Origin: an uncultured Candidatus Binatia bacterium
GTDB lineage: Bacteria; Desulfobacterota; Binatia; UBA9968; JAJDTQ01
DNA length: 64,000 bases
Reading direction: 5' to 3'
NCBI GenBank assembly: GCA_965213675.1
Contig: CBDCAF010000018.1
Span: 7,840-71,839, forward strand
The translations under genes were made by a program, and so were the position numbers. This document shows, piece after piece, positions 40,235 to 60,779 of this stretch; position 1 is the first letter of the stretch; every line of letters begins with the position of its first letter. Below the pieces are notes generated by a model. That model was not told the DNA's origin and searched no databases. It saw nothing but the letters and a program-made list of their open reading frames with translations.

Positions 40235-40239
40235 GACCC

Positions 40240-45390: not shown

Positions 45391-46462
45391 TTTCGCGGTA
45401 AAGAAGTTGCCGTTGATTCATGTCGAGCGTTACGTGTCCTCCCTCGTGTTCCCGGAGAGACCTGAACACGCGATATCCTTTGAGAATGGCGGTTTCCCAC
45501 CGCCATAGGGGAAGTTTGGCGACCTCGAAGCCTTGTATGAACTCCTTTACGGCCTTGAGCAGGTCATAGTCGACCTGGTCGATATTGTCGTAGTAGTTCA
45601 TTTTCTTTGCCCGGCTGAATACAATGGCGGATACGGCCTCTTCGATAATTCTCGCCCGCGCACCGTCCTCGTTCTCGTCCACCAGTGGATCGCTCTTCCG
45701 CTTGCACTTCAGTAGGTGTCTTATGACAGGTGACCATCCGAGGTACACGGCGTAAGCGAAATGGAAAACATCGTGAAACCGGTAGAAGTCAGGCTGTCCG
45801 ATATTGTCCGTCAGGCGATCCCCGAAGTTCAGTCCGTTACACCGGAGTATGGCCGTCACCTTGCTGTCCCGCTGGACTTGGCGAAAGTCGATATCGAGTT
45901 TACGTGGGAGCTGTTCCTCTTCCGGGAAGCCCTCATCGAAGAAAGGTGGGACGACATACCTCTCGGGCCATCGGCTCTGCGTCTTTTCCTGGTTCGTTCG
46001 CGCGGCCTCGTAGAGGTCGACGCCGGCGCCTTCCGCAACGTGAAATAGGGCGTCCCAGGTTGGCCCAAGCCTTCCGGAATCCATTCGGTCACGGTTTTGC
46101 ACTGCACTGAGTAATTCGCCCGCCGCAACCCCGAGGGCCACTCCATCCCCCAAGGGTCCTGGGCTTCGCCCCGATAGGGCCTGCGCTCGCTTGTTCGCAC
46201 GGTTCAGTGCCGACGGATCAAGAATGGCGGAGAGGCGCGCCAAGTACCAAAGACAATCTCCGATTTCTTCGACGAGCCGCTTACGGTATGCGGGATAGGC
46301 GTCGGTTTCACGTTGTTCCTTTTTCAATTCGGCGAGAACACTCCCCGCTTCACCGAAAAGACCTGCCGCAAGGATGAGGGCGTGGTTCGGTTTGTCGACG
46401 AGTTGATCCGTTCGCTTTGCAGACTTGGCGTATTCAATGAGCCAAGACATCGGCTTTCTCAT
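45383..46462 (-). CDS. MazG-like (all-alpha NTP pyrophosphohydrolase) domain protein with a C-terminal extension
   Basis: Contains LAAGLFGEAGSVLAELKKEQRE...RLVEEIGDCLWYLARLS. C-terminal region has FGDRLTDNIGQPDFYRFHDVFHFAYAVYLGWSPV. The stop overlaps the drmMI 3' end by 8 nt. Confidence 0.65.
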   Translation of the reverse strand: MRKPMSWLIEYAKSAKRTDQLVDKPNHALILAAGLFGEAGSVLAELKKEQRETDAYPAYRKRLVEEIGDCLWYLARLSAILDPSALNRANKRAQALSGRSPGPLGDGVALGVAAGELLSAVQNRDRMDSGRLGPTWDALFHVAEGAGVDLYEAARTNQEKTQSRWPERYVVPPFFDEGFPEEEQLPRKLDIDFRQVQRDSKVTAILRCNGLNFGDRLTDNIGQPDFYRFHDVFHFAYAVYLGWSPVIRHLLKCKRKSDPLVDENEDGARARIIEEAVSAIVFSRAKKMNYYDNIDQVDYDLLKAVKEFIQGFEVAKLPLWRWETAILKGYRVFRSLREHEGGHVTLDMNQRQLLYREIT

Positions 46463-47228
46463 GTGCTTCCTTCAAGGAACGGAGATCGTCGAGCAGTTTC
46501 TGTAGCCGTCTTTCCGACCCCTCAAGGGTGGCATAAGACGAGTGGACCACCAGGGTGCCCATGTCCTGCCCGGTCTCTTTGGCGACACAATCCTGGAGGC
46601 GGGCCAAACCAAGCAGGTTGCCTGGTACCTTGTATCGGTAGTCATGGCTCCGGTAGAATGCTGTCAGGTGGACCGCACCAACGAAGAGCTTGAACGAAAG
46701 GTGGGAGAGACAAGGATCGCCCCGTCGGCGTTTACCGTCTTTCACCGTGTTGTAGAGGGGCATGTCGTATTCCCCTTCGGCGACATTAATGTCGTAACGG
46801 GATTTCATGGTTCCCTTGGTCGAAAGCTCCTTCTTCATATTGTCTATCATCTCCTTCAAGGGGTTCATGTCCGTGCCATCGGCTGTCTTTCGTCGAACCA
46901 GCCGATAGGCGTAGGTGTCCCAAAGGATCTTTGGATGCCGCTTGATCGCCGGAAAGGTCTTATCGGGGTAGTCGTCGTAGACGCCCTTCAGTCCCCGCCT
47001 GCGATATTCTGACAAGGGAAAGATCGTTTCGGCCACCGAGTGAATCGGTAGTTGGTTTTCGCCCATAAAGAAGTCATCGAGTTTTTGCTCTGCGGCCTTG
47101 GGATAGCCCCTCTTTCCCGGTTCTCCGATCTCCAGCACAAGGTTCAGCATGGGACCGTTGGACAACAGGAACTCGGCGGCGTCAACCCAGGCATCCATCC
47201 AGGCAGCGGTCTGGATCAATTTTGCCAT
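46434..47228 (-). CDS. Thymidylate synthase-fold (ThyA / pyrimidine hydroxymethylase-like) protein
   Basis: GDPCLSHLSFKLFVGAVHLTAFYRSHDYRYKVPGNLLGLARLQDCVAKETG aligns with E. coli ThyA [56 protein letters not shown] RBS. Confidence 0.65.
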   Translation of the reverse strand: MAKLIQTAAWMDAWVDAAEFLLSNGPMLNLVLEIGEPGKRGYPKAAEQKLDDFFMGENQLPIHSVAETIFPLSEYRRRGLKGVYDDYPDKTFPAIKRHPKILWDTYAYRLVRRKTADGTDMNPLKEMIDNMKKELSTKGTMKSRYDINVAEGEYDMPLYNTVKDGKRRRGDPCLSHLSFKLFVGAVHLTAFYRSHDYRYKVPGNLLGLARLQDCVAKETGQDMGTLVVHSSYATLEGSERRLQKLLDDLRSLKEAHEKADVLAH

Positions 47229-47857
47229 CACGTCACCTCCTCCGTGAGGGCCAGTAGGTCGCGTAGATGACGGGCGAGGAAGGCGTCGTCGAGCCATGCA
47301 TGGCCGTTGTCACCCCATTCGGCACCCCAGCTATTCCTGACCAGGAAGCACCGCGATGTATCGGCGGTCCCCAAACCGACCGCTACGACTGCGTGAAGAC
47401 CTCGGATCGGGCCGTCGTGCGAGATTAACCAAAGAGGTGTAGGCGACAAAAAGTCGTCTGGTATGGAAATGCCGAGAACAGGCGTTTGCCCAGCGTTTAG
47501 CAGGGTTTCGACCTCATCTGCGGTAGCATCCTTCTGAACGCTCTTGCGTGGGTACAGTCGCACGCCTGCCGGTGGCATCCAGCCGAGAGGCAAACCGTCG
47601 GGATAGTAGGGGCAGTCTGCTTCCGCGGGCTGCCCAGGGTCTTGCAGGGCACGAGATGTCTCCAGGAATGCTGCGCCATCCGTCGGATTGTGGACCGACG
47701 CAAAGTAGTGGAGATACTCCGGCGAGAGCGCCATCTTGGAGCCGCGCACGCGTTCGTGTGCGCTCGTGCAGGCAAATGATAGACATGTGGGCCGGGCGCC
47801 CTGGTCCCGAATCGGGCCGAGGCTTTGCCGGTGGTCGACGAGAACGGTGATGTTCAT
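47228..47857 (-). CDS. Papain-family (C1) cysteine peptidase without a signal peptide
   Basis: Contains IRDQGARPTCLSFA (Gln/Cys), GLHAVVAVGLG (His), VRNSWGAEWGDNGHAWL (Asn). Its ATG overlaps the upstream stop (ATGA). Confidence 0.75.
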   Translation of the reverse strand: MNITVLVDHRQSLGPIRDQGARPTCLSFACTSAHERVRGSKMALSPEYLHYFASVHNPTDGAAFLETSRALQDPGQPAEADCPYYPDGLPLGWMPPAGVRLYPRKSVQKDATADEVETLLNAGQTPVLGISIPDDFLSPTPLWLISHDGPIRGLHAVVAVGLGTADTSRCFLVRNSWGAEWGDNGHAWLDDAFLARHLRDLLALTEEVT

Positions 47858-48837
47858 GCTGCATTTGCCAGTGCGTCGAGTTTGGCTTTTCTCGGGAAGC
47901 CGCCGGATTCCTTTCCATGAGCATCGATTTTGATCGCGATATGGTCGAGTGTCGCGCCGCTCCATGGGCGGGCGTGTTCAAAGGCGAGTCGATGTGTGCC
48001 AGGAGTATTGAAACGGACATACACGACACGGGCTGAAGGCCGTCCATAGACTCTGTCCGAGTCTGCTGTGTGCTCTGCGATGACCTCGGAGCTGGCTCCG
48101 GTGTCGATGAGCCTCCAGATGTAGCCGGCGGAAACGTTGTCCTCCAGATGGACTGCGAAGAGATCGTCGGGTCCGGCTTCGAGAAACGTGTCGGTGTCAC
48201 CACAGGTCAAAGCCCAGACGTCGGCCCAGGAGTTCGTGATCAGTTCTGCGGGTGCCAACGCCCGCTTCAGTTCCTTGACCGGCGTCGCTTCGAGTTGTTT
48301 GGCTTCCGCGCGCGTAAGGACCTTGGACGTTACCAAACCCCAGCATGCGGCTTGGTAGCTGATGCCCAAGCGAAGGGAAAGTTGGTAGATGTTGCGCGGT
48401 TGATGCAGCTCTTGCCTTTTCCAGCCATGGCGTGTGGCGGATTCTACCATGAGCTGTTTTGATGCCAGCAGCTCCGAGGCAAAGGTGTCAGCGGCCACCT
48501 CCTCAATCGCACGTGACCCTGAAGCGTGACGTCCCGCGAACCCAACGGTTTTATCCAGGCTTGACTCATGCCCCAGCACCCAGTGTCCGAGCTCGTGGGC
48601 CAGTGTAAACCGCTGAACGGCCAGTCCCATGCGACTCGTAACGATGATGCCTCGGGCACCCTTGCCAGCGGGAACAACGGCGCCCCAAAGATGATCCAGC
48701 GGCCGAAAGACGAGGGGGATGTCCCGCGTGGTGATCGCGCTGACAATGTCGAAACTGGTGCGGTCACTCTTGGCAGTTGAGGCGAGAATCTTGGCTGCTT
48801 CTCTGACGGCTCGCAAAGTCTCGTTACGTCTGTTCAT
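47854..48837 (-). CDS. ImmA/IrrE-type Zn metallopeptidase domain fused to a chagasin-like (I42) cysteine-peptidase inhibitor domain
   Basis: HEXXH motif LAHELGHWVLGH. The C-terminus FAVHLEDNVSAGYIWRL...PGTHRLAFEHARPWSGA matches chagasin NPTTGFAW...AGTHAVNLTYMRPWTGP. Confidence 0.75.
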   Translation of the reverse strand: MNRRNETLRAVREAAKILASTAKSDRTSFDIVSAITTRDIPLVFRPLDHLWGAVVPAGKGARGIIVTSRMGLAVQRFTLAHELGHWVLGHESSLDKTVGFAGRHASGSRAIEEVAADTFASELLASKQLMVESATRHGWKRQELHQPRNIYQLSLRLGISYQAACWGLVTSKVLTRAEAKQLEATPVKELKRALAPAELITNSWADVWALTCGDTDTFLEAGPDDLFAVHLEDNVSAGYIWRLIDTGASSEVIAEHTADSDRVYGRPSARVVYVRFNTPGTHRLAFEHARPWSGATLDHIAIKIDAHGKESGGFPRKAKLDALANAA

Positions 48838-49186
48838 CCGGTTTCCTCGACCGCAGGAATTGGGCGAAACGAAGAACCTCCTCCCGGTCGGTCACCGACA
48901 GTTCAGCGGTCGCCCGTGCTACCAGTCGTACCGACTCCGGCTCCGGGCTCTCCAGATCGGGTCCGGTGAGGCTCTCCATGTTGGTCTGATAGAGCGTGGC
49001 AAGGCGCTGAAGTTCCAATGCATCGACACGTCGCGCCCGATTCTCCATGAGTGAAATGGCGGATCTGGGAAGGCCGAGATGTGCGGCAACCTCTTCCTGG
49101 GTGAACCCGCAGTATTCCCGCGCCTCCTTTAGCCGCGTGCTCAGGGTGCCACGCTTGGCTGGCTGGCCGTGATTATCGTCGTTCAT
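48824..49186 (-). CDS. XRE-family helix-turn-helix transcriptional regulator
   Basis: Contains LKEAREYCGFTQEEVAAHLGLPRSAISLMENRARRV. 14-nt overlap with the ImmA-like gene. Confidence 0.85.
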   Translation of the reverse strand: MNDDNHGQPAKRGTLSTRLKEAREYCGFTQEEVAAHLGLPRSAISLMENRARRVDALELQRLATLYQTNMESLTGPDLESPEPESVRLVARATAELSVTDREEVLRFAQFLRSRKPDEQT

Positions 49187-49220
49187 TTACCACCTCCAAT
49201 CGGATGGGTTGGCGTCAAGC

Positions 49221-49616
49221 TCAGGAGATCTTTCTCATCATTTCGGGTACAAGATGATCGATCATGTCGTCGATGCTCTGGTAACCTCCAGGACGAATCA
49301 GCCGAACGTCAATGGGGCGACCTAGGTATCGCTGAAAAATCGGAGAGCTGCGGGCCACAGCCTTTGAGTCCAACTCAGGCATGGAATCCCACAGGTCGGA
49401 GTTGCTCCTGTCACTGACCATTCCGTTACGACTCGCTTCCACTTGTAAATCCCAGTCTCCCATCTCCTGACTCGCCCATTCCCTGAGTTCTTTTCTCAAG
49501 AGGGCCTCCTTGTTCGGCCCACGGCCCCTCACGGTCCTCAGCGTGGAGGTATCCCAGAACGAAAGGGGAATCTGGGATGAAGATTTAGGGGCTTGGGTAG
49601 GGATTTTGTGTTCCAT
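49221..49616 (-). CDS. Hypothetical protein; the C-terminal half resembles a phosphopantetheine carrier domain
   Basis: ELDSKAVARSSPIFQRYLGRPIDVRLI..GYQSIDDMIDHLV resembles the PCP/ACP pattern GxDS[LK]xAV...F...L...SI..L..HL. Located 34 nt downstream of the PPTase gene. Confidence 0.45.
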   Translation of the reverse strand: MEHKIPTQAPKSSSQIPLSFWDTSTLRTVRGRGPNKEALLRKELREWASQEMGDWDLQVEASRNGMVSDRSNSDLWDSMPELDSKAVARSSPIFQRYLGRPIDVRLIRPGGYQSIDDMIDHLVPEMMRKIS

Positions 49617-49650
49617 AACGGAACAAGATTAGCACCGTAATGTTCGAAAG

Positions 49651-50322
49651 TCAAACATTGCGTTGGGGCAATTCCGGCTGTTGTGACAACAAGGCAACTG
49701 AGCCCACCCAGGGACGGACGGCGGTGGTGCAGCAAACCTCTACAGCGATTCGGTCGAAATGAGCAACGCCGTTCATCATCCCTTGTGGCGCAACTTCCTT
49801 CCACGAGAGTCGTACGTTGTCGTAGCCGAATCGGACACCAAGAACAGGGTTCAAAGCCTTGAAAACGGCTTCCTTCACCGACAGTAGGATCACCGAGCCT
49901 GCAACACCCCAGTCCAGAGGCAACTCGTCGGACGCGATCAGTCCTTTGATTGACAGGAGTTCCCGACCGCGGTCCAGAGTCTCGATGTCGATGCCGACGG
50001 ACCTCACGTGACTGATCCGAGATAGCCCAGCCACAACTTTGGTGCCTTTATGGCTCACGCTCCCCGTGTAACCCGGTGGCCAGTCTCGGGCGCCGGAGGC
50101 GAGGTGCCCTGGCTCATTGGCAGACAGCCCAGCACTCTCCAGCAGATTGGTCAGACAGGTCGCCGTGGCCTTCCGTCTCGCGCGTTCCACGACGGGGACA
50201 CGTTCAGCGGACAGGACGTCCTGAGGGCCTGGTAGCCAATGCGCAAAAGAACCGCCCCTGATGCTCACTTCAGGTGCCAAGCGTTTGAGTTCGTCAACGA
50301 GGGGGTCACGTTGCAGATACAT
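49651..50322 (-). CDS. 4'-phosphopantetheinyl transferase (EntD/Sfp-type)
   Basis: Trimmed to MYLQRDPLVDEL. Contains WPPGYTGSVSHKG, VGIDIE, LSVKEAVFKAL. Confidence 0.75.
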   Translation of the reverse strand: MYLQRDPLVDELKRLAPEVSIRGGSFAHWLPGPQDVLSAERVPVVERARRKATATCLTNLLESAGLSANEPGHLASGARDWPPGYTGSVSHKGTKVVAGLSRISHVRSVGIDIETLDRGRELLSIKGLIASDELPLDWGVAGSVILLSVKEAVFKALNPVLGVRFGYDNVRLSWKEVAPQGMMNGVAHFDRIAVEVCCTTAVRPWVGSVALLSQQPELPQRNV

Positions 50323-50504
50323 GGTTTGATTTTTGCCGTTTACGGGTCTGCGTGGGGTCGATATCGGTTGGGTGCCGTGACGACGGCTGGCTTCTCGTTG
50401 TCTCCCGTGCCCCAGTTCTTCCGCTTGGGGCATATCGTCTCATCGGGTAACCTATTCTATAGGCCGCCGGTTCCGTGGGCGAGCCCCCATTGGACGCGAT
50501 CCTG

Positions 50505-50903
50505 ATGGAAGCCAAACTCAAGCACCTTGAATTTATCCAGGGCGTAGTGAATCGCCTAGCGTCTGACTCCTTCCGAATGAAGGGCTGGGCGGTGGCCTTG
50601 GTTGCTGCGTTCTTTGTCCTGTTGGCAAGGGAAGGACGGATCGAATTTGCCCCGATAGCCGTGGTTCCCGTGCTTGTCTTCTGGGGACTCGACGGCTACT
50701 TCCTGTGGCAGGAACGTCTCTTCCGTGCCCTGTACGATCACGTTCGGCGTGTGAGTGAAGTCGACATTGACTTCTCCATGGATGTCGGCCCGTTTCGAAT
50801 GGGCTGGCGACGAACTTGGTTGGGCGCAACATTCTCGAAAACGCTGATCTTCTTCTACGGCGCGTTGACCATCGCTGTCGGCTTGGTGACGTGCATCTAC
50901 TGA
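50505..50903 (+). CDS. Small integral membrane protein (about 3 TM helices)
   Basis: Contains GWAVALVAAFFVLLA, IAVVPVLVFWGLDGYFLW, LIFFYGALTIAVGLVTCIY. An alternative GTG start is at 50475. Confidence 0.6.
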   Translation: MEAKLKHLEFIQGVVNRLASDSFRMKGWAVALVAAFFVLLAREGRIEFAPIAVVPVLVFWGLDGYFLWQERLFRALYDHVRRVSEVDIDFSMDVGPFRMGWRRTWLGATFSKTLIFFYGALTIAVGLVTCIY

Positions 50904-50922
50904 CCGCGAGGAGACACATCCA

Positions 50923-51420
50923 ATGACACGCAGGGTGTTCTACAGCTTTCACTACAACGCCGACAACTGGCGAGCTGCCATGGTGCGCAATATCGGCAGT
51001 ATCGAAGGGAGCAGCCCCGCATCGGACAACGACTGGGAGGCCGTGAAGAGGGGCGGGGAAGCAGCGATCAGGAAATGGATCGCCAACCAAATGCAATACC
51101 GCTCCTGTACAGTCGTACTGGTCGGGTCGAATACTGCGAACCGCAAGTGGATCAACCACGAAATCGTCAAGTCGTGGGATGACGGTATGGGTGTGATAGG
51201 GATCCACATTCACGGGCTGAAGGATGCCGACGGCAATACGTCAGCCCGAGGAGCCAATCCGTTTGACTTCATCACGCTTGGAGATTCTGCGAAGCGGCTA
51301 TCATCCATAGTGAGGTGTTGTGTTCCCGGCGGCAGCAATAGTCAGGAGAAATATGCCTGGATCTCGAAGCACCTCGCGAATGCAGTAGAAGAAGCCATAA
51401 AAATACGAAACAATAATTGA
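50923..51420 (+). CDS. ThsB-like TIR domain protein (DUF1863 / MTH538 TIR-like)
   Basis: Contains RVFYSFHYNADNWRAAMVRN, CTVVLVGSNTANRKWINHEI, GVIGIHIHGL. Confidence 0.7.
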   Translation: MTRRVFYSFHYNADNWRAAMVRNIGSIEGSSPASDNDWEAVKRGGEAAIRKWIANQMQYRSCTVVLVGSNTANRKWINHEIVKSWDDGMGVIGIHIHGLKDADGNTSARGANPFDFITLGDSAKRLSSIVRCCVPGGSNSQEKYAWISKHLANAVEEAIKIRNNN

Positions 51421-52673
51421 AGACCGCTATCGTCTGTATGAAAGCATCCATCGAGCAACCCAACCCTGGAGCCGATCCCGGAACGATCACGCGCGTAGCC
51501 CTGCGTAACTACAAAAGCATTGCCGCCTGCGATGTCGAGTTGACGCCGCTCACTGTCCTCGTGGGTCCCAACGGTTCCGGCAAGAGTAATTTCCTTGACG
51601 CCCTGTGCTTTGCGGCGCAGGCATTGCGTTTTTCTCTGCACCATGCTGTACACGAGCGCGGTGGGATCAACGAGGTGCGCCGGCTTTCCCACGGCCATCC
51701 CAACCGCTTTGGCATCCGTCTGGATTTCCGTTTGTCCGACGCAACAGGGTGGTACGCGTTCAAGATCGGAGTGCGACGGAACGGCGGCTGTGTCGTACAC
51801 CGCGAGGAATGTGCTATCCAACACGCCGACCCTGGAGAAAGGCAGTATTTCCGAATAGGCGACGGTCGTCTACTGTCTACCTCCATCCCACACCCGCCGC
51901 CGACAGGTGGAAGTGACCGACTTTACCTACAGTCGGCCTCAGGATTTCGAGCGTTCCGGCCGATTTACGATATGTTGGCGGGAATGGGGTTCTACAATCT
52001 CAAGCCGGACCGGATTCGAGACTTCCAGTCGCCGGACCGCGGGGATCTCCTCAAACGGAATGGAAGCAACATCGCCAGCGTTCTCGCCAACCTTGAGTCA
52101 CGTTCCCCAGAGGTTGCAACACGGGTCGGCCAATACCTGTCCAAGGTCGTCCCGGGAACGGTCGGCGTGGCGTCGAAGACGGTCGGACCCAAGCTGACCC
52201 TGGAGTTTTGTCAGCAGGTGCGTGGCGATCCGCACCCTCGGCGGTTTCTTGCCAACAACGCTTCAGAAGGGACGTTGCGGGTCGTCGGGGTACTCGTAGC
52301 GCTTTGTCAGAGTATCGGAGTGGAATCGGGGAACGTGAAACTGGTCGGCATCGAAGAACCGGAAGGCACCCTTCACCCTGCGGCTGCCGGAGTGCTGTCC
52401 GACATACTGCGCGAGGCGAGCGAGCGTGTGCAGGTTGTCGTCACCAGCCAGAGTGCGGACTTGTTGGATCGGAAAACGATTCCATTGGAATCCATCCTGG
52501 CGGTCGTCTCCGAGGACAATGAGACGAAAATTGCCCGGCTTGATGCGGCAGGCCACACGGCACTCCGGGAAGATATGTTCACGGCGGGGGAGATGCTTCG
52601 GATGAATCAGCTTACGCCGAATCCAAAGCAGGTGGCGCCCGTTCACCTGGACCTCTTCCGTAAGGAGGAGTAG
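51417..52673 (+). CDS. ABC/SMC-type AAA ATPase (AAA_21/COG4637-like)
   Basis: Walker A LVGPNGSGKSNFLDAL, signature-like ASEGTLRVVGVL, Walker B LVGIEEPEGTLHP. The TTG start overlaps the TIR stop by 4 nt. An alternative ATG is at 51438. Confidence 0.75.
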   Translation: MKTAIVCMKASIEQPNPGADPGTITRVALRNYKSIAACDVELTPLTVLVGPNGSGKSNFLDALCFAAQALRFSLHHAVHERGGINEVRRLSHGHPNRFGIRLDFRLSDATGWYAFKIGVRRNGGCVVHREECAIQHADPGERQYFRIGDGRLLSTSIPHPPPTGGSDRLYLQSASGFRAFRPIYDMLAGMGFYNLKPDRIRDFQSPDRGDLLKRNGSNIASVLANLESRSPEVATRVGQYLSKVVPGTVGVASKTVGPKLTLEFCQQVRGDPHPRRFLANNASEGTLRVVGVLVALCQSIGVESGNVKLVGIEEPEGTLHPAAAGVLSDILREASERVQVVVTSQSADLLDRKTIPLESILAVVSEDNETKIARLDAAGHTALREDMFTAGEMLRMNQLTPNPKQVAPVHLDLFRKEE

Positions 52674-52698
52674 GGGAAGGTGTCAAGGAGGCGTGTTC

Positions 52699-53049
52699 AT
52701 GCCGCGCAACACATCGGTTTCTCTCGGGTATCACTTCATCGGTTTCATCGACGAGCGTGTGCAGTCCGGTCGTTACAACTCGGCAAGCGATGTGGTGCGC
52801 GCCGGGCTGCGGCTGTTGGAAGAGCACGAAGCCAAGGTTGAGGCTCTGAGGGAAGCCCTCATCGAAGGCGAGCAATCCGGTCCGGCGACACCGTTTGACT
52901 TCGACGCGTTCATTACCCGCAAGAAGACTACTCAGGACGGTCAAGAGGGCCGTCCTGAGACCCAGTCCGAGTTTGCCAGCCAAGACCGCTACCCGGCCGG
53001 CCATGAAACGGGACGCCTGAACCGAGACGACATTGACGAAGGCGGTTAG
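52699..53049 (+). CDS. parD: ParD-family (RHH) antitoxin-like protein with an atypical C-terminal tail of about 35 aa
   Basis: Contains MPRNTSVSLGYHFIGFIDERVQSGRYNSASDVVRAGLRLLEEHEAKVEALREALIEGEQSGPATPFDFDAF. Confidence 0.8.
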   Translation: MPRNTSVSLGYHFIGFIDERVQSGRYNSASDVVRAGLRLLEEHEAKVEALREALIEGEQSGPATPFDFDAFITRKKTTQDGQEGRPETQSEFASQDRYPAGHETGRLNRDDIDEGG

Positions 53050-53058
53050 TTTCCTACA

Positions 53059-53298
53059 ATGAGCACCATGATTGACCCGAAGGCATGCGCCTTCCAGGAA
53101 GATCGCGCTGCGGCTGAAGTCGAAGCTGCCCTGGCGGCGGCCAAGGAAGACGCCAAGAGAGTCAGGGCAGAGTTTGTCGATAGTTTGCCGCCAGACTCTC
53201 TCGCATACGATGCCGAATGGACTACCGGGTACGGCAGCGAGGGTCGCTTGATCTTCACGATAACCTCCGTATGCGTGACTACCCCAGAGAAGCGGTGA
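53059..53298 (+). CDS. Hypothetical small protein (weak call)
   Basis: ATG lies 9 nt after the parD-like stop. No recognisable motif. Confidence 0.25.
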   Translation: MSTMIDPKACAFQEDRAAAEVEAALAAAKEDAKRVRAEFVDSLPPDSLAYDAEWTTGYGSEGRLIFTITSVCVTTPEKR

Positions 53299-53461
53299 AC
53301 CAAGTGACTGCCGACCTGCGAAGGCGACTCGTCGGCACAAGAGTCGATGCATGTGGTGTATGGGTGGTCACCATCATCCTGCGGCCCAGGCCGTCGGGTT
53401 GATCCCATGCCTAGAGATCCACGCCAATTGACAACCGCGGACCATCCCGTACGTTCAAGGC

Positions 53462-53842
53462 ATGACCTACCGAGAGCCATTGCCCCCTGGATGTCCGCCG
53501 AACCCCGCGGACGAAATCAACCTGCCACGTGAGCTGTTCCGGTTGGTGCGGAGCCTTCCACCCGCCGCAGAGGACTTCAGATCGTGGCGCGCGGAACAAC
53601 CGCAACGCGGTTTACCGAAGGAGTTGACGGAGTGCCAAGCCCGGGGACTGTCGGTCTATGCAGAGCGCTACGACCTGGAGAGCATCTTGAAGCTCCCGAA
53701 GTTCCGCGGACGTTGGATCTGTCGCCTGCGGCTGGGAGCGGGCGCGGGCCGGATTCAACAGACGGGGAGACCTTCGCACCATACTTGGTGGCCGCTGGCT
53801 GATTACGATTTCCTCGGCCAGTGTCACGTGGAAACGGCATGA
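53462..53842 (+). CDS. Hypothetical protein translationally coupled to drmA
   Basis: 126 aa. Its stop overlaps the drmA ATG (ATGA at 53839-53842). Composition resembles the flanking DISARM genes. No motif recognised. Confidence 0.55.
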   Translation: MTYREPLPPGCPPNPADEINLPRELFRLVRSLPPAAEDFRSWRAEQPQRGLPKELTECQARGLSVYAERYDLESILKLPKFRGRWICRLRLGAGAGRIQQTGRPSHHTWWPLADYDFLGQCHVETA

Positions 53843-56800
53843 GTACGATCCGTTACACCGCCAGTCTGCTGTACTACGACGGCCCACAGATCATCGAAGC
53901 CCGCGACGATGAGGGTCACGATTATCTGGCGTTGTTGGTGGAGAGTGACGGGGAAGACCGCTATCTGGCCGTGGAGGTTGCCGCTGATCGGTTGCACCAA
54001 TTTCGCAATGGTTCGCTGGACTTGAGGACGCTGCTGACCGAGTCGGCGAAGAATGGGTGGTATCTGACGACGACCGCGGATCTCGATCAACCGTTGACGA
54101 TTGTGCGCCAGCAGACGCCGGTCGGGGAAAGCGGATTTCTTCCCGCGGACGGCTTTGTGCTGCATGAATTGGGCTCGCCCGTTGAGCGCAAGCAAGAGAG
54201 CGTTGAGATGCCCACGAGACCGCCGAAGCTTGCCGACTCCGCTGAAGCGCGCGCCGAAATCACCCGCGCCCTCCGCCTGGACCTCGTCGGCCCCGGCGCG
54301 GACGGCTATCTCGCCGACGAGCAACTCCCCGGTTGGGTGCGTCCGTCCAACTGGTACCTCACCGGCTTCCTTGTTCCACGCTATGCCGGCTTTGAGCAGC
54401 GCGCCGATGCGGACTCGGACGATGAGATGGAGCCGGAGGTCTGCGAGGACATAGGCGCTGGCGACGACTCCAGCGAAGACCGTCGTGCCGCCAAGGCGGG
54501 GTTCTTTCCGTCGTCCATGGGTTTGAGCTTTCTCGCGGCGCCGGGGACCGACCGTGTCACCGCGGTCGTGCGCTGGGGCGACTACCGGAAGGTCGAGGGC
54601 AAGGTTTCCGCTGAAGAGGGAAGCGAATTGCCGGTTCGGTGGCAACGCACGCGGTGCGAAGCAACCCTGTCCATGGTCTTGCCGGAAGACAATTCGCCGC
54701 GGCATCTGCCTGTGCCCCACTCACGGGGCCTCGAAGTCCACGTCGTGGCCCGGACCATGGACGCGAGCCTCTTTGCCGGGAAGATCGCTCGGGACACGCG
54801 CTCCGTCTCCGTATTTCTGGTCAACGCCCGAGCACCGGCCGAGGACGACCGGCGGGACGAGGCATTTGCCTTTCAAGCACAGATCGAAGTGCAGTCCGAT
54901 GTCCCTTTCGCCGTGCGGCCCGACCTTCGCCCTGTATCGGGCGACAACTGGGATGAACGGGTGGCCGACCTGCACTATGCCGATGTTCCCGAGTATGCTT
55001 CCGGGCACGGCGTGGCAGCGACTTGGGAGGTCCGGGGCGGCGCCTGTCATGCCTTGCGAACGGACTGGACGCCCATCGCGGAAGTGGAGCATACCGAGCC
55101 GCTCACACACCTTGCCCGAACCGAACTGGACATGACTGCGCTGGGCCGGCTCGCCGATGGCGAGGCCGTGCGAACGGCTCTGATGCCGCTGGTATCCGGA
55201 TACCGTGAGTGGGTCGAAGCGCATGCACTCGGAGACCTCCCGGAGCAGCGGAAAGAGGTCGCTCGGGAGTTGCTGCACCGTGCCCGCCTGGCGGCAAGGC
55301 GCATGGAAAAGGGCATCGGCGTACTGGCCTCCGATGTGGAGGCGCGAGATGCTTTCTGCATGGCCAACCGGGCCGTCGCTGCGGCATTGGCGCGGCGCAT
55401 CGAAGACCCTCCCCGGTGGCGCGCCTTCCAACTCGCATTCGTGCTGTTGAACCTGCCCGGAATCGCCGACCCTTCCGATCCCGAGCGCGAGATCGTCGAC
55501 CTGCTGTTTTTTCCCACCGGCGGCGGCAAGACCGAGGCGTATCTCGGTCTGGCGGCCTTCACCATGGCGTTGCGGCGGCTGCGCAACCCTGCGGACAACG
55601 GACGCGCTGGCGCCGGCGTCAGCGTCATCATGCGGTATACGCTACGCCTGTTGACACTGGACCAACTCGGTCGCGCCGCCGCGCTGGTGTGCGCGATGGA
55701 ACTTGAACGTAAACGCGATGTTGAACGCTACGGCGTGTGGCCGTTCGAGATCGGCCTGTGGGTCGGCAAGGCGGGCACTCCCAACTGGCTCGGCAAGAAG
55801 GGCGACCGCAATTCGGATTCCGCGCGTGCCAAGGTCAACCGGTACAAGGACAATCCGCAGGCTCGGCCCATACCCATCCCGCTGGAGAACTGTCCCTGGT
55901 GTGCCCACAGGTTCACGCCCGATTCCTTTGCGCTGCTGCCGAACGCCGACGCGCCCACGGATTTGCGCATTTCTTGCTCGAACTGGGAATGCGAGTTTTC
56001 CGGCGACCCGCCGCTTCCTATCGTTGCTGTGGACGAGCCCCTGTACCGGCGTCTGCCGGCCTTTCTGATTGCCACGGTGGACAAGTTCGCGTCTCTGCCT
56101 TGGGTTGGACAGTCCGGGGCGCTGCTCGGCGGCGCGGACCGCTTCGATGACGAAGGGTTCTACGGCGCCGCCGACCCGCGAACAGGGAATCCGCTCACGA
56201 CGCCGTTGTTGCCGCCCGATCTGGTGATTCAGGACGAGATGCACCTCATCTCCGGGCCGCTCGGCACCATGACCGGCTTGTACGAGGCGGCCATCGAGAC
56301 GCTGTGCGTGCGCGAGGCGGAGGGCCGGATCGTAAGGCCGAAGATCGTCGCCTCTACCGCCACCGTGCGGCAGGCCCACGAGCACATCCAGGCGCTTTTC
56401 GCCCGGCCCGACACCCAGGTGTTTCCGCCGCCGGGGCCGGACCGTCGCGATTCGTTCTTCGCCCGCACGGTCCCGGCCGCTGAGAAGAACGCTCGTCAGT
56501 ACGTTGGCGTCGTGGCCCAGGGGCGCAACCCCAAGGTGGTGATGCGCCGGGTGCTGCTGGCGCTGATGGCCGCGGCGGAGCGCGTCTGGCGGGACGCCGG
56601 CGGCCCGGGCAACAAGCAAAATCCCGCCGACCCGTACATGACGGCTCTCGGCTACTTCAACAGCCTGCGGGAACTCGGCGGGGCACGGCGGATTCTGGAA
56701 GAGGAAGTGCAGAATACGCTGAAGGGCTACAGCAACCGCAAGCGGCTCAATGAAGCGACGAGTCTGTTCCGTGATCGCACACGGTTCTCGGACGTAGTGG

Positions 56801-57621
56801 AGCTCACGTCGCGGGTCAGCGCCGACCAGGTGGCCGTGGCGCGCCGGCGGCTGGAACGTCCCTTTTTTGATGACGAGCACAACGAGCGGGTGGACTGCGC
56901 CATCGCCACCAACATGATTTCCGTGGGACTGGATATCCAGCGGCTGGGGTTGATGGTGGTGAACGGACAACCGAAGACTCATGCCGAGTACATTCAGGCC
57001 ACCAGCAGGGTGGGGCGGGACGACAGCCGCCCGGGGCTCGTGGTCACGCTCTATAACGTCCACAAACCGCGGGACCGGTCCCACTACGAGCAGTTCCTGA
57101 ACTACCACAACACGTTCTATCGTTCGGTGGAGGTCGTCAGCGTGACCCCCTTCGCCGCGCGGGCGCTGGACCGAGGTTTCGCGGGCGCGCTGGTCGGACT
57201 GGCCCGGCATGGCCGTTCGCGGATGACGCCACGGACTGGCGCGCAGGACATCGAAGCAGAGCGCGCGGTGCTGGAGCCCCTGCTGCTTCACGCTTTCGAG
57301 GAGCGAGTGCGCGGCCAGCCGGTTCAGGACGACGCGGAACGCGACGAGCGGCTGCGCAGCGTTCGGCGTCGCGTCGGCGACCTGCTCGATTCCTGGACCG
57401 CCATTTGGCAGGACTACCGTGCCAGCGGCGCGGCCATGCAGTACCAGCGTTATGAACGGGGGGGCGTGGAGAAACCGTTGCTCAGGGACATGCTGGATGC
57501 GGATTTCGAGTCGGAGCACCACAGGAAGTTTTGCGCCAACCGCTCGCTCCGCGATGTCGAGCCCGCGGTGGACCTTTACGTGCAGGACCTCCCAAGCGCC
57601 CTGGATGGGGGCGGTGGATGA
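53839..57621 (+). CDS. drmA: DEAD/DEAH-type helicase, DISARM DrmA-like
   Basis: Contains LFFPTGGGKTEAYLGLAAF, VIQDEMHLISGPLG, ASTATV, IATNMISVGLDIQRLGLMVVNGQPKTHAEYIQATSRVGR. Confidence 0.8.
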   Translation: MSTIRYTASLLYYDGPQIIEARDDEGHDYLALLVESDGEDRYLAVEVAADRLHQFRNGSLDLRTLLTESAKNGWYLTTTADLDQPLTIVRQQTPVGESGFLPADGFVLHELGSPVERKQESVEMPTRPPKLADSAEARAEITRALRLDLVGPGADGYLADEQLPGWVRPSNWYLTGFLVPRYAGFEQRADADSDDEMEPEVCEDIGAGDDSSEDRRAAKAGFFPSSMGLSFLAAPGTDRVTAVVRWGDYRKVEGKVSAEEGSELPVRWQRTRCEATLSMVLPEDNSPRHLPVPHSRGLEVHVVARTMDASLFAGKIARDTRSVSVFLVNARAPAEDDRRDEAFAFQAQIEVQSDVPFAVRPDLRPVSGDNWDERVADLHYADVPEYASGHGVAATWEVRGGACHALRTDWTPIAEVEHTEPLTHLARTELDMTALGRLADGEAVRTALMPLVSGYREWVEAHALGDLPEQRKEVARELLHRARLAARRMEKGIGVLASDVEARDAFCMANRAVAAALARRIEDPPRWRAFQLAFVLLNLPGIADPSDPEREIVDLLFFPTGGGKTEAYLGLAAFTMALRRLRNPADNGRAGAGVSVIMRYTLRLLTLDQLGRAAALVCAMELERKRDVERYGVWPFEIGLWVGKAGTPNWLGKKGDRNSDSARAKVNRYKDNPQARPIPIPLENCPWCAHRFTPDSFALLPNADAPTDLRISCSNWECEFSGDPPLPIVAVDEPLYRRLPAFLIATVDKFASLPWVGQSGALLGGADRFDDEGFYGAADPRTGNPLTTPLLPPDLVIQDEMHLISGPLGTMTGLYEAAIETLCVREAEGRIVRPKIVASTATVRQAHEHIQALFARPDTQVFPPPGPDRRDSFFARTVPAAEKNARQYVGVVAQGRNPKVVMRRVLLALMAAAERVWRDAGGPGNKQNPADPYMTALGYFNSLRELGGARRILEEEVQNTLKGYSNRKRLNEATSLFRDRTRFSDVVELTSRVSADQVAVARRRLERPFFDDEHNERVDCAIATNMISVGLDIQRLGLMVVNGQPKTHAEYIQATSRVGRDDSRPGLVVTLYNVHKPRDRSHYEQFLNYHNTFYRSVEVVSVTPFAARALDRGFAGALVGLARHGRSRMTPRTGAQDIEAERAVLEPLLLHAFEERVRGQPVQDDAERDERLRSVRRRVGDLLDSWTAIWQDYRASGAAMQYQRYERGGVEKPLLRDMLDADFESEHHRKFCANRSLRDVEPAVDLYVQDLPSALDGGGG

Positions 57622-59447
57622 ACGGCAACGAACGCGGGCAGATACGCCGCAGCCAGGTCATCACGACGTTCGGGCCGGGCGCGTTGATCGACCTGCCGCG
57701 ACACTCCGCCATCGTCGGCGGACTGGAGACCTGGAGCCCGGACCTGGAGGAAATAGCCGAACCGCGGCTCACGGCGAAGCTGATGCAGATGACGGGGGTT
57801 CCCCACCCCCGGCTCTACGCTCCTCCACCGGAGCAGCGGAGGCCGTTGGACAAGAAGCGGAACATCGGCGCGTGGCGCTTTCCGGAGTGGTTCGTGGTGC
57901 AGGAGGGCAACTGGGACGGCCGGAACTCCCGCTCCCGGCGTCTCGTGCATCGCAAGGCGCTGAACCCCAAGGGAAGATTCGAGATCCTCGACGACAACGG
58001 CAGGCGTGCCGGCAACGACGTGGTGGCCACCCGTTTTGTCCGCGCCTGCGCCCGAGGCCATGTGGACGACATCGACTGGTACGCCTTCGTGCACGGCGGC
58101 AACGACCCATGCCGGCGACAGTTGTGGCTGGACGAACGCGGCACCAGCGGCGACCTGGCGGAACAAGTCGTTCGTTGTGAATGCCGTAAGCAGCGGCGCA
58201 TGTACGAGGCCACGCGGTTTGAGGATTTCCCCTTGGGGGTTTGCAGTGGCGCGCGGCTCTGGCTGGGCCGCCACGCCAGGGAGGAATGCCATGAGCCGAG
58301 CCGGCTGCTGATCCGCACCGCGTCGAACGCCTGGTTCCCTCAGGTCGTGAGCGTGCTGTCGTTGCCGGACCGAGGCAGTAAGGTGGAACAGGCGGTCGAA
58401 GCGATCTGGGACCGGCTGCAGATCGTTGACGATGCCGCCGGTCTCGGCTTCGTGAAGAAATACCCGGAGGTGGCCACGCGGCTGGCGCCGTTCCCGGACC
58501 AGGATGTGCTGGACGTGATCGCGGCCCGCCATGCCGGAGGGTCCGCCGGTTCGCGCCCCATCAAACGCGCCGAGATGGATGTCCTGCTCGCGGCAGCCGA
58601 GGGTTACGGCGATGACATGGCTGTCGACCCCGACTTCCACGCCCGCCGCCTGCCGGACTCGGCTTGGCGCCGTTCGGGGCGGTTCGATGCCGTCGAAGCA
58701 GTGATCCAGGTCCACCGGCTTCGGGAAGTGCTGGCGCTAGCCGGGTTCACGCGACTGGAAGCCGTGATGCCCGACGTGGACGGGGAGTACGACGCCACCG
58801 TCGAGCGGGCCGACATCGCACGGGAGCCGCAGTGGTTCCCCGCGGTCGAAAACCGCGGCGAGGGCATCGTGGTGCAACTCCGGGCCGAAAACGTGCGGGA
58901 GTGGCTGGGACGGGATGCGGTCAAGACACGGCTCGATATCCTGATGGCCGGACACGACGCCTGGGCGGAGAAACAGAGCGGAAGGCGCTCCACACCGCCA
59001 CAGTTTCCGGGCGGACCGTACGTGCTCCTGCACACGCTGGCGCATCTGCTGATTCAATCATTGTCCCTGCGGTGCGGCTACCCGGCCGCTTCCATTCGCG
59101 AACGCATCTTCGTCGATCCGGCCGGCGCCCGGCATGCTTTGCTTCTCTATACCGCGACGCCGGACGCCGAAGGCACCTTGGGCGGTCTCGTGCAGCAGGC
59201 GCGCGATGTCGAAGCGCATCTCCGCCAGTCTCTGGAAGCCGGAGCGCTGTGCTCCAACGATCCCGTCTGCGCCGAGCACGTACCCGGCGACAGCATGGAA
59301 GAACGTTGGCTGCACGGCGCCGCCTGCCACGGCTGCGCGCTCATCGCGGAGCCTTCCTGCGAGATGCGCAACGAGTACCTGGATCGCGCGCTGGTGGTGC
59401 CGACCCTCCAGGCGCGGGCCGCGGCTTTTTTTGACGTCCTCGTCTGA
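57618..59447 (+). CDS. drmB: DUF1998-domain protein, DISARM DrmB-like
   Basis: The ATG overlaps the drmA stop (ATGA). Contains RRSQVITTFGPGALIDL, LLHTLAHLLIQ, PDAEGTLGGLV and the C-terminal Cys cluster CHGCALIAEPSCEMRNEYLDR. Confidence 0.8.
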   Translation: MNGNERGQIRRSQVITTFGPGALIDLPRHSAIVGGLETWSPDLEEIAEPRLTAKLMQMTGVPHPRLYAPPPEQRRPLDKKRNIGAWRFPEWFVVQEGNWDGRNSRSRRLVHRKALNPKGRFEILDDNGRRAGNDVVATRFVRACARGHVDDIDWYAFVHGGNDPCRRQLWLDERGTSGDLAEQVVRCECRKQRRMYEATRFEDFPLGVCSGARLWLGRHAREECHEPSRLLIRTASNAWFPQVVSVLSLPDRGSKVEQAVEAIWDRLQIVDDAAGLGFVKKYPEVATRLAPFPDQDVLDVIAARHAGGSAGSRPIKRAEMDVLLAAAEGYGDDMAVDPDFHARRLPDSAWRRSGRFDAVEAVIQVHRLREVLALAGFTRLEAVMPDVDGEYDATVERADIAREPQWFPAVENRGEGIVVQLRAENVREWLGRDAVKTRLDILMAGHDAWAEKQSGRRSTPPQFPGGPYVLLHTLAHLLIQSLSLRCGYPAASIRERIFVDPAGARHALLLYTATPDAEGTLGGLVQQARDVEAHLRQSLEAGALCSNDPVCAEHVPGDSMEERWLHGAACHGCALIAEPSCEMRNEYLDRALVVPTLQARAAAFFDVLV

Positions 59448-59600: not shown

Positions 59601-59739
59601 GATGGAGACGGATGGAGATGACCCTCGAATATGCCTGGGTGTACGGGTACGTTAGTTGACATCCCCTCCGCCCATATACTACGCTTTGCTTCCAGCCTCG
59701 GCATGGCTTTCCGGACGACATTGTAGGCGGCGATGCTTC

Positions 59740-60150
59740 ATGGGTAGCGAGACACTCTGGCCGCTGGGCCTTTACTTTCTGATGGCTCTCGTTGTGGCGG
59801 GAAGCATGATCGGGCTGTCGTTCGTCCTCGGCGAGCGGCACTCGGATCGCGCCACCGGGCAGCCCTACGAGTCCGGCATCCTCTCCACCGGCTCGGCGCG
59901 TGTGCGCCTTTCCGTGAAGTTCTACATCGTCGCGATGCTCTTCGTGATCTTCGACCTGGAAGCGGTTTTCATCTTCGCTTACGCCGTGGCTCACGAAGAG
60001 GTGGGTTGGTCGGGCTATGTCGGCATGGTGATATTCGTGGCGGTGCTGGTGGTGGGGCTGATCTATGAGTACCGCATGGGCGCGCTCGACTGGGAGCCCC
60101 TCCGTCTGAGACGGGCCAGGGCCGGTCGGGAAAGGATCGGTATTTCATGA
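59740..60150 (+). CDS. nuoA: NADH-quinone oxidoreductase subunit A
   Basis: Trimmed to [17 protein letters not shown]. Contains [22 protein letters not shown]. Confidence 0.9.
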
Positions 60151-60779
60151 AGTGGTCGCTGTCCAAACCCCAGGCCGCGCAGGAACCGGGGAAGGGCGCC
60201 TTCGACGACGCCATGCAGCGGCTCCTGGTGATGGCGCGCCTGGACGACCTGGTGCGCTGGGGGCGCAAGAATTCGATGTGGCCCTTCCACTTCGGGCTCT
60301 CCTGCTGCTTCGTGGAAATGGCCACGAGCCTCACCAGCAAGTTCGACGTGGCCCGCTTCGGCGCCGAGGTCATTCGCGGTACGCCCCGGGAGGCCGACGT
60401 CATCGTGATCGCCGGCACCCCCTTCATCAAGATGGCGCCGGTGGTGCGGCGACTCTACGAGCAGATGATGGAGCCCCGCTGGGTGATCTCCATGGGCGCC
60501 TGCGCCAACTCCGGCGGCATGTACGACATCTACAGCGTGGTCCAGGGAGTGGACAAGATCCTTCCCGTGGACGTGTACGTGCCGGGGTGCCCGCCCGCTC
60601 CGTGGGCGTTTCTGGAGGCGTTGACGCTCTTGCAGAAGGCCGTGGGCAACGAGCGCCGGCCCCTGAGCTGGATGGTGGGCCCCCAGGGTGTGGAGAAGGC
60701 GGAACTGCCCGCCATGCGCGACGTGAAGCGGCCCGACCGGGTTCGAGCCACCAGCCTGCGTACGCCGAACGAAGTCTGA
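60147..60779 (+). CDS. nuoB: NADH-quinone oxidoreductase subunit B
   Basis: Contains [30 protein letters not shown] overlap with nuoA. Confidence 0.95.

Follow-up and report, generated by a model that had tools for sequence, protein, structure and literature searches.

A ThsB-type TIR gene and its membrane-protein partner as a probable two-gene Thoeris module carried within a DISARM locus

Introduction

Three closely spaced plus-strand genes in a 64-kb stretch of DNA from an uncultured Candidatus Binatia bacterium (contig CBDCAF010000018.1; the whole stretch is referred to here as the window) raise the question of whether they form one defense system or several. The genes encode a small membrane protein, a TIR protein and an ABC-type ATPase, and the open reading frame (ORF) list of the window places them at 50475/50505–50903, 50923–51420 and 51417–52673, in agreement with an initial annotation that had read them as a coupled three-gene cassette. 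Here, we propose that the membrane-protein gene (50505–50903) and the TIR gene (50923–51420) probably constitute a self-contained, two-gene abortive-infection module of the Thoeris type, that the ATPase is a separate, orphan HEC-01A protein, and that all three are cargo of a DISARM locus. The two-gene module is already catalogued as the candidate PDC-M50, and very probably falls under type V Thoeris.

Results

Family assignment of the TIR and membrane proteins

The TIR protein bears the ThsB hallmark that had originally been recognized in it. It matches Pfam ThsB_TIR (E 3e-27) and aligns near full length with the PADLOC models ThsB1 (3e-67) and PDC-M50B (1.5e-62; residues 1–163 against model positions 1–160 of 162), and hidden Markov models (HMMs) do not place it in a non-TIR family. 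The catalytic glutamate, E80 of the NHEI motif, is invariant together with 61 other columns in an alignment of 15 homologues. The family is very large and unusually well conserved: it comprises 5149 proteins at E ≤ 1e-10, with members that keep 65–79% identity in Latescibacterota, Proteobacteria, Patescibacteria, Actinomycetota, Nitrospirota, Planctomycetota and other phyla.

The gene immediately upstream encodes a protein matching the PADLOC model PDC-M50A (E 1.7e-45; residues 11–139 of the ORF of 142 amino acids (aa) against model positions 1–129 of 134). Its start is at ATG 50505, as judged by the N-terminus M-E/D-x-K-x-K-H-L that is conserved in a family alignment of 35 homologues, and gene callers give a length of 132 aa in sibling contigs of the locus. 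The membrane and TIR genes are separated by 19 nucleotides (nt). When compared with the sibling contigs, the ratio of nonsynonymous to synonymous substitution rates (dN/dS) is 0.09–0.18 for the membrane gene and 0.13–0.19 for the TIR gene, and the evidence for purifying selection on both is strong. Considered together, the near full-length PADLOC matches, to PDC-M50A, to ThsB1/PDC-M50B and, for the ATPase, to HEC-01A, point to two separate modules, PDC-M50 and half of HEC-01.

Pairing and exchange of effectors beside ThsB

We analyzed 80 TIR loci from a one-genome-per-species collection that spans many phyla, searching their ORFs with the membrane-family HMM and with the ATPase sequence. The pairing is tight and widespread: a membrane-family gene is present at 56 of the 80 loci, and at 48 it is directly adjacent to the TIR gene, on the same strand and at a distance of at most 60 nt. 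An intervening element was identified at four of the eight loci where the two genes are not adjacent, and is either an extra ThsB gene (L035, L038 and L079) or an insertion sequence (IS) element (L046). No other membrane-protein partner was found beside this TIR subfamily in the 80 loci.

At 12 loci, the gene directly upstream of the TIR encodes a canonical ThsA (470–486 aa, SIR2_2 and STALD, PADLOC ThsA 1e-169 to 2e-201), and at a further three it encodes a SLOG cluster-3 protein. The TIRs of the 12 ThsA loci are 65–72% identical to the window TIR, and in a neighbor-joining tree of 81 TIRs they are scattered among those paired with membrane proteins. Two ThsA-paired TIRs (L014 and L041) are 90–91% identical to a membrane-paired one (L024), and another (L065) is 84% identical to the membrane-paired TIR of L069. 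The scattering and the near identity therefore indicate repeated replacement of the effector, SIR2-SLOG ThsA against membrane protein, beside almost unchanged TIRs, which identifies the membrane protein as an interchangeable Thoeris effector. The comparison thus argues strongly for the membrane protein as a Thoeris effector that would read the same TIR product as ThsA, and the earlier suggestion that it serves as effector of a TIR-based module is supported by its presence at the majority of loci and its alternation with ThsA. No relative of ThsA, SLOG or SIR2 was found anywhere in the window by tblastn with five such proteins, and the neighboring genes lack such domains; the absence of a ThsA-type effector noted at the outset accordingly stands.

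Some TIR loci have additional features. A second, divergent ThsB (124, 146 or 223 aa) lies between the membrane gene and the 165-aa TIR in L035, L053, L072, L075 (Patescibacteria), L038, L052 (Nitrospira) and L079, and the 146-aa type is the sole TIR of L088, a sibling of the window locus. In the Spirochaetia metagenome-assembled genome of L046 (4963–6977), a transposase gene (416 aa) has inserted into the membrane gene and splits it; downstream, the TIR gene is retained, as is a full HEC-01 (ATPase and DUF4276). Genes for a GajA-like ATPase-TOPRIM protein and a UvrD-like helicase follow the TIR gene in L001, an arrangement that is Gabija-like on reading of the ORFs. In L039 (475–2341), a member of the ThsB subfamily is located 136 nt downstream of a short pAgo (PADLOC pAgo_I 2.5e-176), a hint of additional use of the subfamily in pAgo settings.

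Relation to published and catalogued systems

Type V Thoeris consists of ThsB and ThsF (Yirmiya et al., bioRxiv 10.64898/2025.12.03.692087, December 2025 preprint). In that work, ThsF spans the membrane with three helices and is annotated as DUF2270 (PF10028), and the AlphaFold3 model of ThsF is a homo-heptameric, channel-like ring with basic pockets between the protomers. The validated systems function as two genes. That of B. thuringiensis DAR 81934 provides phage defense, which is blocked by the Tad1 sponge; its TIR produces 3'cADPR, and addition of this molecule is toxic to cells that carry the system. The system of Bacillus sp. 1NLA3E is not activated by 3'cADPR. The preprint also reports one TIR cluster that is split among SIR2-SLOG, caspase and DUF2270 partners, and the window subfamily shows a like pattern.

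The TIR subfamily of the window (NRKWINHEI, cluster 2661146773) carries the label "DUF2270 - Type V" in the preprint's Table S1, where effector labels are representative-based and noisy by the authors' own warning. Four TIRs of Table S1 were retrieved, three of which are 66–68% and one 55% identical to the window TIR, with identities of up to 78–91% to TIRs in the 80 loci. Moreover, homologues (39.5–48.6% identical) of the validated B. thuringiensis ThsB are encoded directly beside the membrane family of the window on five plasmids: Priestia megaterium p1, one from Terribacillus, two from Klebsiella, and C. botulinum p6CSt. Based on the Table S1 label, the proximity of validated-ThsB homologues to the same family and the like pattern of partners, we consider it very likely that the membrane protein belongs to the ThsF family.

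The window pair thus resembles type V Thoeris in that one operon joins two genes, for a ThsB TIR and for a small effector with three transmembrane (TM) segments, and in that TIRs of its type also pair with SIR2-SLOG ThsA. It differs in that the window TIR does not share a sequence cluster with any of the three tested type V TIRs, and in that the membrane protein lies below the Pfam DUF2270 threshold. Comparison with type I Thoeris (ThsB and the SIR2-SLOG effector ThsA) shows the same ThsB subfamily, and therefore the signal is probably also the same (3'cADPR); unlike type I, however, the window has no ThsA, SIR2 or SLOG, and its effector would act on the membrane and not deplete NAD+. Type II Thoeris (TM-Macro effector, His-ADPR) likewise uses a TIR signal to activate a membrane-spanning killing effector, but the 132-aa protein has neither a Macro domain nor room for one, and the TIR subfamily and the signal differ. 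We rejected type II for the window pair on account of the missing Macro domain.

The PDC and HEC candidates were obtained by mining the genes carried inside BREX, DISARM or type I restriction-modification systems (Payne et al., bioRxiv 10.1101/2024.01.29.577857). The window genes are adjacent, match both PDC-M50 models, and lie between drmMI and drmA, the setting used to define the candidate; PDC-M50 is, on the other hand, a two-gene candidate for which no mechanism was proposed and which does not include the ATPase. The novelty implied by the initial annotation has to be withdrawn, as PADLOC lists the pair as PDC-M50 and the preprint lists the TIR subfamily under type V Thoeris (10.64898/2025.12.03.692087).

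Structure and relatives of the membrane protein

The AlphaFold2 monomer of the 132-aa protein (mean predicted local distance difference test score 77.6) has three long helices, 2–43, 46–82 and 112–131, and three hydrophobic segments, in keeping with the three-TM protein of about 130 aa described at first. The charge distribution suggests a topology with an amphipathic helix (1–26) in the cytoplasm, TM1 (~27–43), a short outer loop, TM2 (~48–68), an Arg-rich cytoplasmic loop (69–111) and TM3 (~112–131). Nine residues are invariant in the family alignment, and seven of these (Q12, R17, W28, W60, D63, E70 and S111) lie in or at the edge of the two predicted cytoplasmic parts.

The family is large, with 4819 representatives retrieved by a profile search at E ≤ 1e-3 of 1.84 billion representatives clustered at 50% identity. 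A scan of the window protein against Pfam and NCBIfam gave no family match, and Pfam recognizes no nucleotide-binding domain in it. Matches to PF10028 were obtained for 4 of 35 homologues and for the family consensus, at E 0.009–0.02 (consensus 0.018) and about 15 bits against a cut-off of 25; the best E-value of any single member, 0.0088, is likewise sub-threshold. The Pfam scan of the 35 homologues, two consensus sequences and the plasmid homologues gave sub-threshold matches to DUF2270, DUF3278, 8xMP and others with similar scores. No bridge to DUF2270 was seen among the 150 profile-search matches listed, which reach only E 1e-32. In a homology search seeded with the Priestia homologue, all named matches were "hypothetical protein", with no Pfam domain and no B. 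thuringiensis ThsF among them. We rejected a SLATT-type effector, as there was no Pfam SLATT match and one homologue gave a weak match to DUF4231 (E 0.066).

In other proteins, the membrane module is fused to additional domains. It forms the C-terminal part of the SLOG fusion protein P0312 (LD_cluster2 1.7e-15), and on the Rathayibacter plasmid NZ_CP047175.1 (L084, 1533–4033) the full module is C-terminal to a HIT hydrolase, with two TIR genes flanking the fusion gene. These SLOG and HIT fusions fit a membrane-acting output module that is used by several Thoeris types. A further protein, P0279, is listed together with P0312 for the SLOG-fused module, and the Rathayibacter HIT-membrane fusion with its two TIR genes resembles type XI Thoeris.

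Proposed mechanism

By analogy with type V Thoeris, the ThsB-type TIR would detect phage infection and convert NAD+ to a cyclic ADP-ribose signal, most likely 3'cADPR. The membrane protein would bind this signal on its cytoplasmic face, by means of the N-terminal amphipathic helix and the 69–111 loop, which hold most of the invariant polar residues, and binding may take place at pockets between the protomers of an oligomer. The type V work suggests that a probable ring-shaped homo-oligomer would then open or disrupt the membrane, so that phage replication stops and the infection is aborted.

The ATPase as an orphan HEC-01 subunit

The third gene encodes a protein that matches AAA_21, AAA_15 and SMC_N, with Walker A (GPNGSGKS) and the IEEPE motif intact. 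Its best PADLOC model is HEC-01A (PDLC04178, E 7.2e-150; residues 23–416 against model positions 8–396 of 399). The SMC/ABC-like family and Walker A first assigned to it are thus correct, but the length of 418 aa is not borne out by the sibling gene calls. The 4-nt TTGA overlap with the TIR gene, given in the initial annotation alongside the correct 19-nt gap, arises only if translation begins at the earliest available codon, TTG 51417. In three sibling contigs, gene callers instead chose the in-frame ATG that lies at 51438 in the window (410–411 aa), which leaves 17 nt between the genes, and both the best PADLOC model and the L046 homologue align to the ATPase from about residue 23 in TTG numbering.

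HEC-01 consists of an ABC ATPase and a TOPRIM protein, and gave no defense against the phages tested by its authors (10.1101/2024.01.29.577857). Of nine loci retrieved from metagenomes with the ATPase as query, five (L088, L089, L090, L094 and L096) have a DUF4276/HEC-01B gene directly downstream of the ATPase relative, and so does the TIR locus L046, which makes six of the six loci that could be assessed. The partner in L046 matches Pfam DUF4276 (1.5e-10) and PADLOC HEC-01B (3e-72), and the downstream genes of the other five are its close homologues (phmmer 5e-54 to 1e-82). No TOPRIM/DUF4276 gene or degraded remnant of one was found in the window, where the best tblastn match to the L046 partner has an E-value of 0.76; the position at which the relatives carry the TOPRIM gene is occupied by a ParD ORF. 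As judged by these matches and neighborhoods, the ATPase represents subunit A of an ABC-ATPase/TOPRIM system of the HEC-01 type, of which this lineage has lost the TOPRIM (DUF4276) gene, and it stands outside the Thoeris pair.

The ATPase shares an ABC-type fold family with components of PARIS, Gabija and Septu, whose partner genes AriB, GajB and PtuB are absent here. Its matches to AriA, GajA and Old (1e-13 to 1e-22) are far weaker than that to HEC-01A (7e-150), and membership of any of the three systems was rejected for that reason. A role as a sensor or regulator of the PARIS, Septu or Gabija type, as first suggested, is unlikely given the synteny seen from both the TIR and the ATPase side.

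Discussion

Alternatives to a two-gene type V module

Several observations weigh against placing the pair in type V Thoeris as proposed above. The identification of the membrane protein as ThsF rests on gene neighborhood and Table S1 and not on direct sequence comparison, the protein being below the Pfam DUF2270 threshold; a Foldseek search of the PDB with the AlphaFold2 monomer gave no match at E ≤ 0.001; and the identity of the signal, its binding and the formation of a pore are all steps that we infer. One alternative is that the membrane family is distinct from the validated ThsF, the latter being the true DUF2270, and that the pair is a further Thoeris type, possibly with another ligand, that was lumped in Table S1. 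The sub-threshold scores of every member against PF10028, the acknowledged noise of the Table S1 labels and the unresponsiveness of the Bacillus sp. 1NLA3E system to 3'cADPR are consistent with such a distinction. We nevertheless consider it unlikely, as the homologues of the validated B. thuringiensis ThsB adjoin this very family on the five plasmids, the described ThsF has three membrane-spanning helices like the window protein, and the 80 loci offer no alternative membrane partner for the TIR subfamily. A different division of labor, in which the TIR itself depletes NAD+ as effector, as in some CBASS, Pycsar and pAgo contexts, and the membrane protein provides anchoring, sensing or immunity, would draw on the fact that bacterial TIRs can be NADase effectors (10.64898/2025.12.03.692087), on the lack of a recognizable nucleotide-binding domain in the membrane protein, and on the L039 TIR beside a short pAgo. 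It is, however, improbable: TIRs of the same subfamily (up to 91% identical) pair with SIR2-SLOG ThsA, a receptor for a TIR-made signal, the window TIR matches ThsB models over its full length, the membrane module is fused to SLOG and HIT effector domains elsewhere, and type V ThsB makes the 3'cADPR that triggers effector toxicity (10.64898/2025.12.03.692087).

A separate question is whether the ATPase belongs to the module, as it would in a coupled three-gene system with the ATPase as infection sensor or TIR regulator, the TIR as source of the signal and the membrane protein as killer. Here, too, some findings count against our preferred reading of two genes plus an orphan subunit. The ATPase begins at most 17 nt from the TIR gene, and no terminator-like site was detected by scanning in either this gap or that between the membrane and TIR genes; sibling contigs L097–L099 keep the block membrane-TIR-ATPase-ParD; every sibling contig has an intact ATPase ORF; and three lineages, those of the window, L046 and L088, have a HEC-01 ATPase next to a membrane-TIR pair. 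The dN/dS of the ATPase gene relative to the siblings, 0.31–0.34, is two to three times that of its neighbors and well below 1, so that the gene is under relaxed constraint, yet is not neutrally evolving. In spite of this, three-gene coupling is highly improbable. A close ATPase homologue is present at only one of the 80 TIR loci (L046), leaving 55 of the 56 membrane-TIR loci without one, and the validated type V systems function with two genes. The sibling contigs that retain the block are 86–88% identical to the window in DNA, and hence do not provide independent evidence for it; beyond such close siblings, no conserved synteny of the three genes is seen in other genomes. The ATPases of L046 and L088 bring their own DUF4276/TOPRIM partner and thus represent complete HEC-01. 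L088 is a sibling of the same DISARM locus (drmMI 91% identical in DNA), and its cargo is arranged differently: the ATPase (79% identical) comes first and is followed by TOPRIM, then by the membrane protein (81%) and a ThsB other than that of the window (44%), ahead of the shared small gene and drmA. Seen from the ATPase side, a membrane-TIR pair occurs at one of about six non-redundant loci, in a different order. The differing order and the separate partner in the relatives suggest that the ATPase and the membrane-TIR pair are reshuffled neighbors and not an operon of fixed architecture. A variant of the coupled system, in which the HEC-01A ATPase was kept after loss of its TOPRIM partner and recruited by the Thoeris pair as an extra infection sensor or gate of the TIR, would account for the intact ORF in all siblings, the dN/dS of about 0.3 and the location within 17 nt downstream of thsB; we give it little credence, but if true, it would make the system of this lineage a three-component Thoeris variant. 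Given the intact ORF and this dN/dS, there is also a small probability that the orphan ATPase still acts alone or with its neighbors.

The DISARM setting and neighboring genes

The membrane-TIR pair and the ATPase are carried as cargo inside a class-1 DISARM system, in the slot that separates drmMI from drmA (Table 1), and the G+C content of the cargo region is 56–60%, compared with about 65% in the flanks. A scan of the cassette for promoters and terminators gave background levels only.

Table 1. Position of the Thoeris-type pair, the ATPase and surrounding features in the window
Feature	Coordinates	Strand	Evidence
Putative membrane effector gene, 132 aa, three predicted TM helices, PDC-M50A/ThsF-like	50505..50903	+	PADLOC, AlphaFold2 model, synteny, dN/dS
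GGAG Shine-Dalgarno-like motif within the 19-nt spacer, ~8 nt 5' of TIR ATG 50923	50909..50912	+	Sequence reading
ThsB-type TIR gene, 165 aa; presumed phage sensor and producer of signal molecule	50923..51420	+	Pfam, PADLOC, homologue alignment
Orphan HEC-01A-type ABC ATPase gene, 411 aa from ATG 51438 or 418 aa from TTG 51417	51438..52673	+	PADLOC, neighborhoods of relatives
ParD-type antitoxin ORF without ParE partner, 118 aa	52693..53049	+	Pfam ParD_antitoxin 3.6e-35, residues 3–79
DISARM class-1 drmD	36893–40234	+	PADLOC DrmD 2.8e-303
DISARM class-1 drmMI, upstream of cargo	40216–45390	+	PADLOC DrmMI E 0
Divergent seven-gene cluster	45383–50433	minus	Pfam, PADLOC
DISARM drmA, downstream of cargo	53821–57621	+	PADLOC DrmA 2.6e-277
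DISARM drmB	57531–59447	+	PADLOC DrmB 2.7e-80

Upstream of the membrane gene, a cluster of seven genes is transcribed in the opposite direction. The spacer of 182 base pairs reported between the two depends on the start chosen for the minus-strand gene, and shrinks to 71 nt if the full ORF, which extends to 50433, is used. The cluster encodes a PPTase-like protein (weak Pfam matches), a 131-aa protein of no recognized family, a CapH-like helix-turn-helix protein, a fusion of a CapP-like M78 peptidase with a chagasin-type I42 inhibitor domain, a C1 peptidase of the papain type, a ThyA-like protein, and MazG with MazG_C (1.8e-78). PADLOC models are matched by the two regulators only, and the cluster looks like a separate candidate defense operon that is regulated in the manner of CapH/CapP. 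The cluster is present in sibling L097. Homologues of the seven proteins were found in none of the 80 TIR loci, and sibling L088 lacks the cluster, so that comparison lends no support to the co-regulation with the cassette that had been suggested.

On the downstream side, ParD is 78 aa long in the siblings and the window ORF continues to 118 aa (dN/dS 0.11–0.18); no ParE is recognizable beside it (52693–53460). The approximately 400 nt after ParD contain no recognized gene, and siblings L098 and L099 carry ORFs of 121 and 182 aa at this position. A 126-aa protein (53462–53842) gives a weak match to PD-T4-10_A (5e-5), and its ORF overlaps that of drmA by 22 nt. The first ~85 residues of the DrmA ORF (53821 to ~54200) give weak matches to PD-T4-10_B and DUF6575, and homologues of the A-like and B-like parts form a free-standing pair (127 aa and 404 aa) in L001 (11334–12885); a PD-T4-10_B-like domain thus appears to be fused to DrmA in the window. 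Directly after drmB, the translations read as nuoA- and nuoB-like genes (59656–60779; no family search was run), and the DISARM locus therefore abuts genes of core metabolism. No DrmC (PLD) gene was evident after drmB on reading the ORF translations, again with no family search run.

Implications

The locus adds little to the known kinds of defense system, as the pair is already the PDC-M50 candidate and very probably within type V Thoeris. It does illustrate that close gene spacing within a defense island is no evidence of a shared system, and that the drmMI-drmA slot of DISARM is a hotspot of cargo shuffling. More generally, in a very strongly conserved ThsB subfamily whose range extends from Patescibacteria to Proteobacteria, a SIR2-SLOG effector has been exchanged repeatedly for a membrane effector of 132 aa, and this repeated exchange beside the same ThsB argues that both effectors read the same signal.

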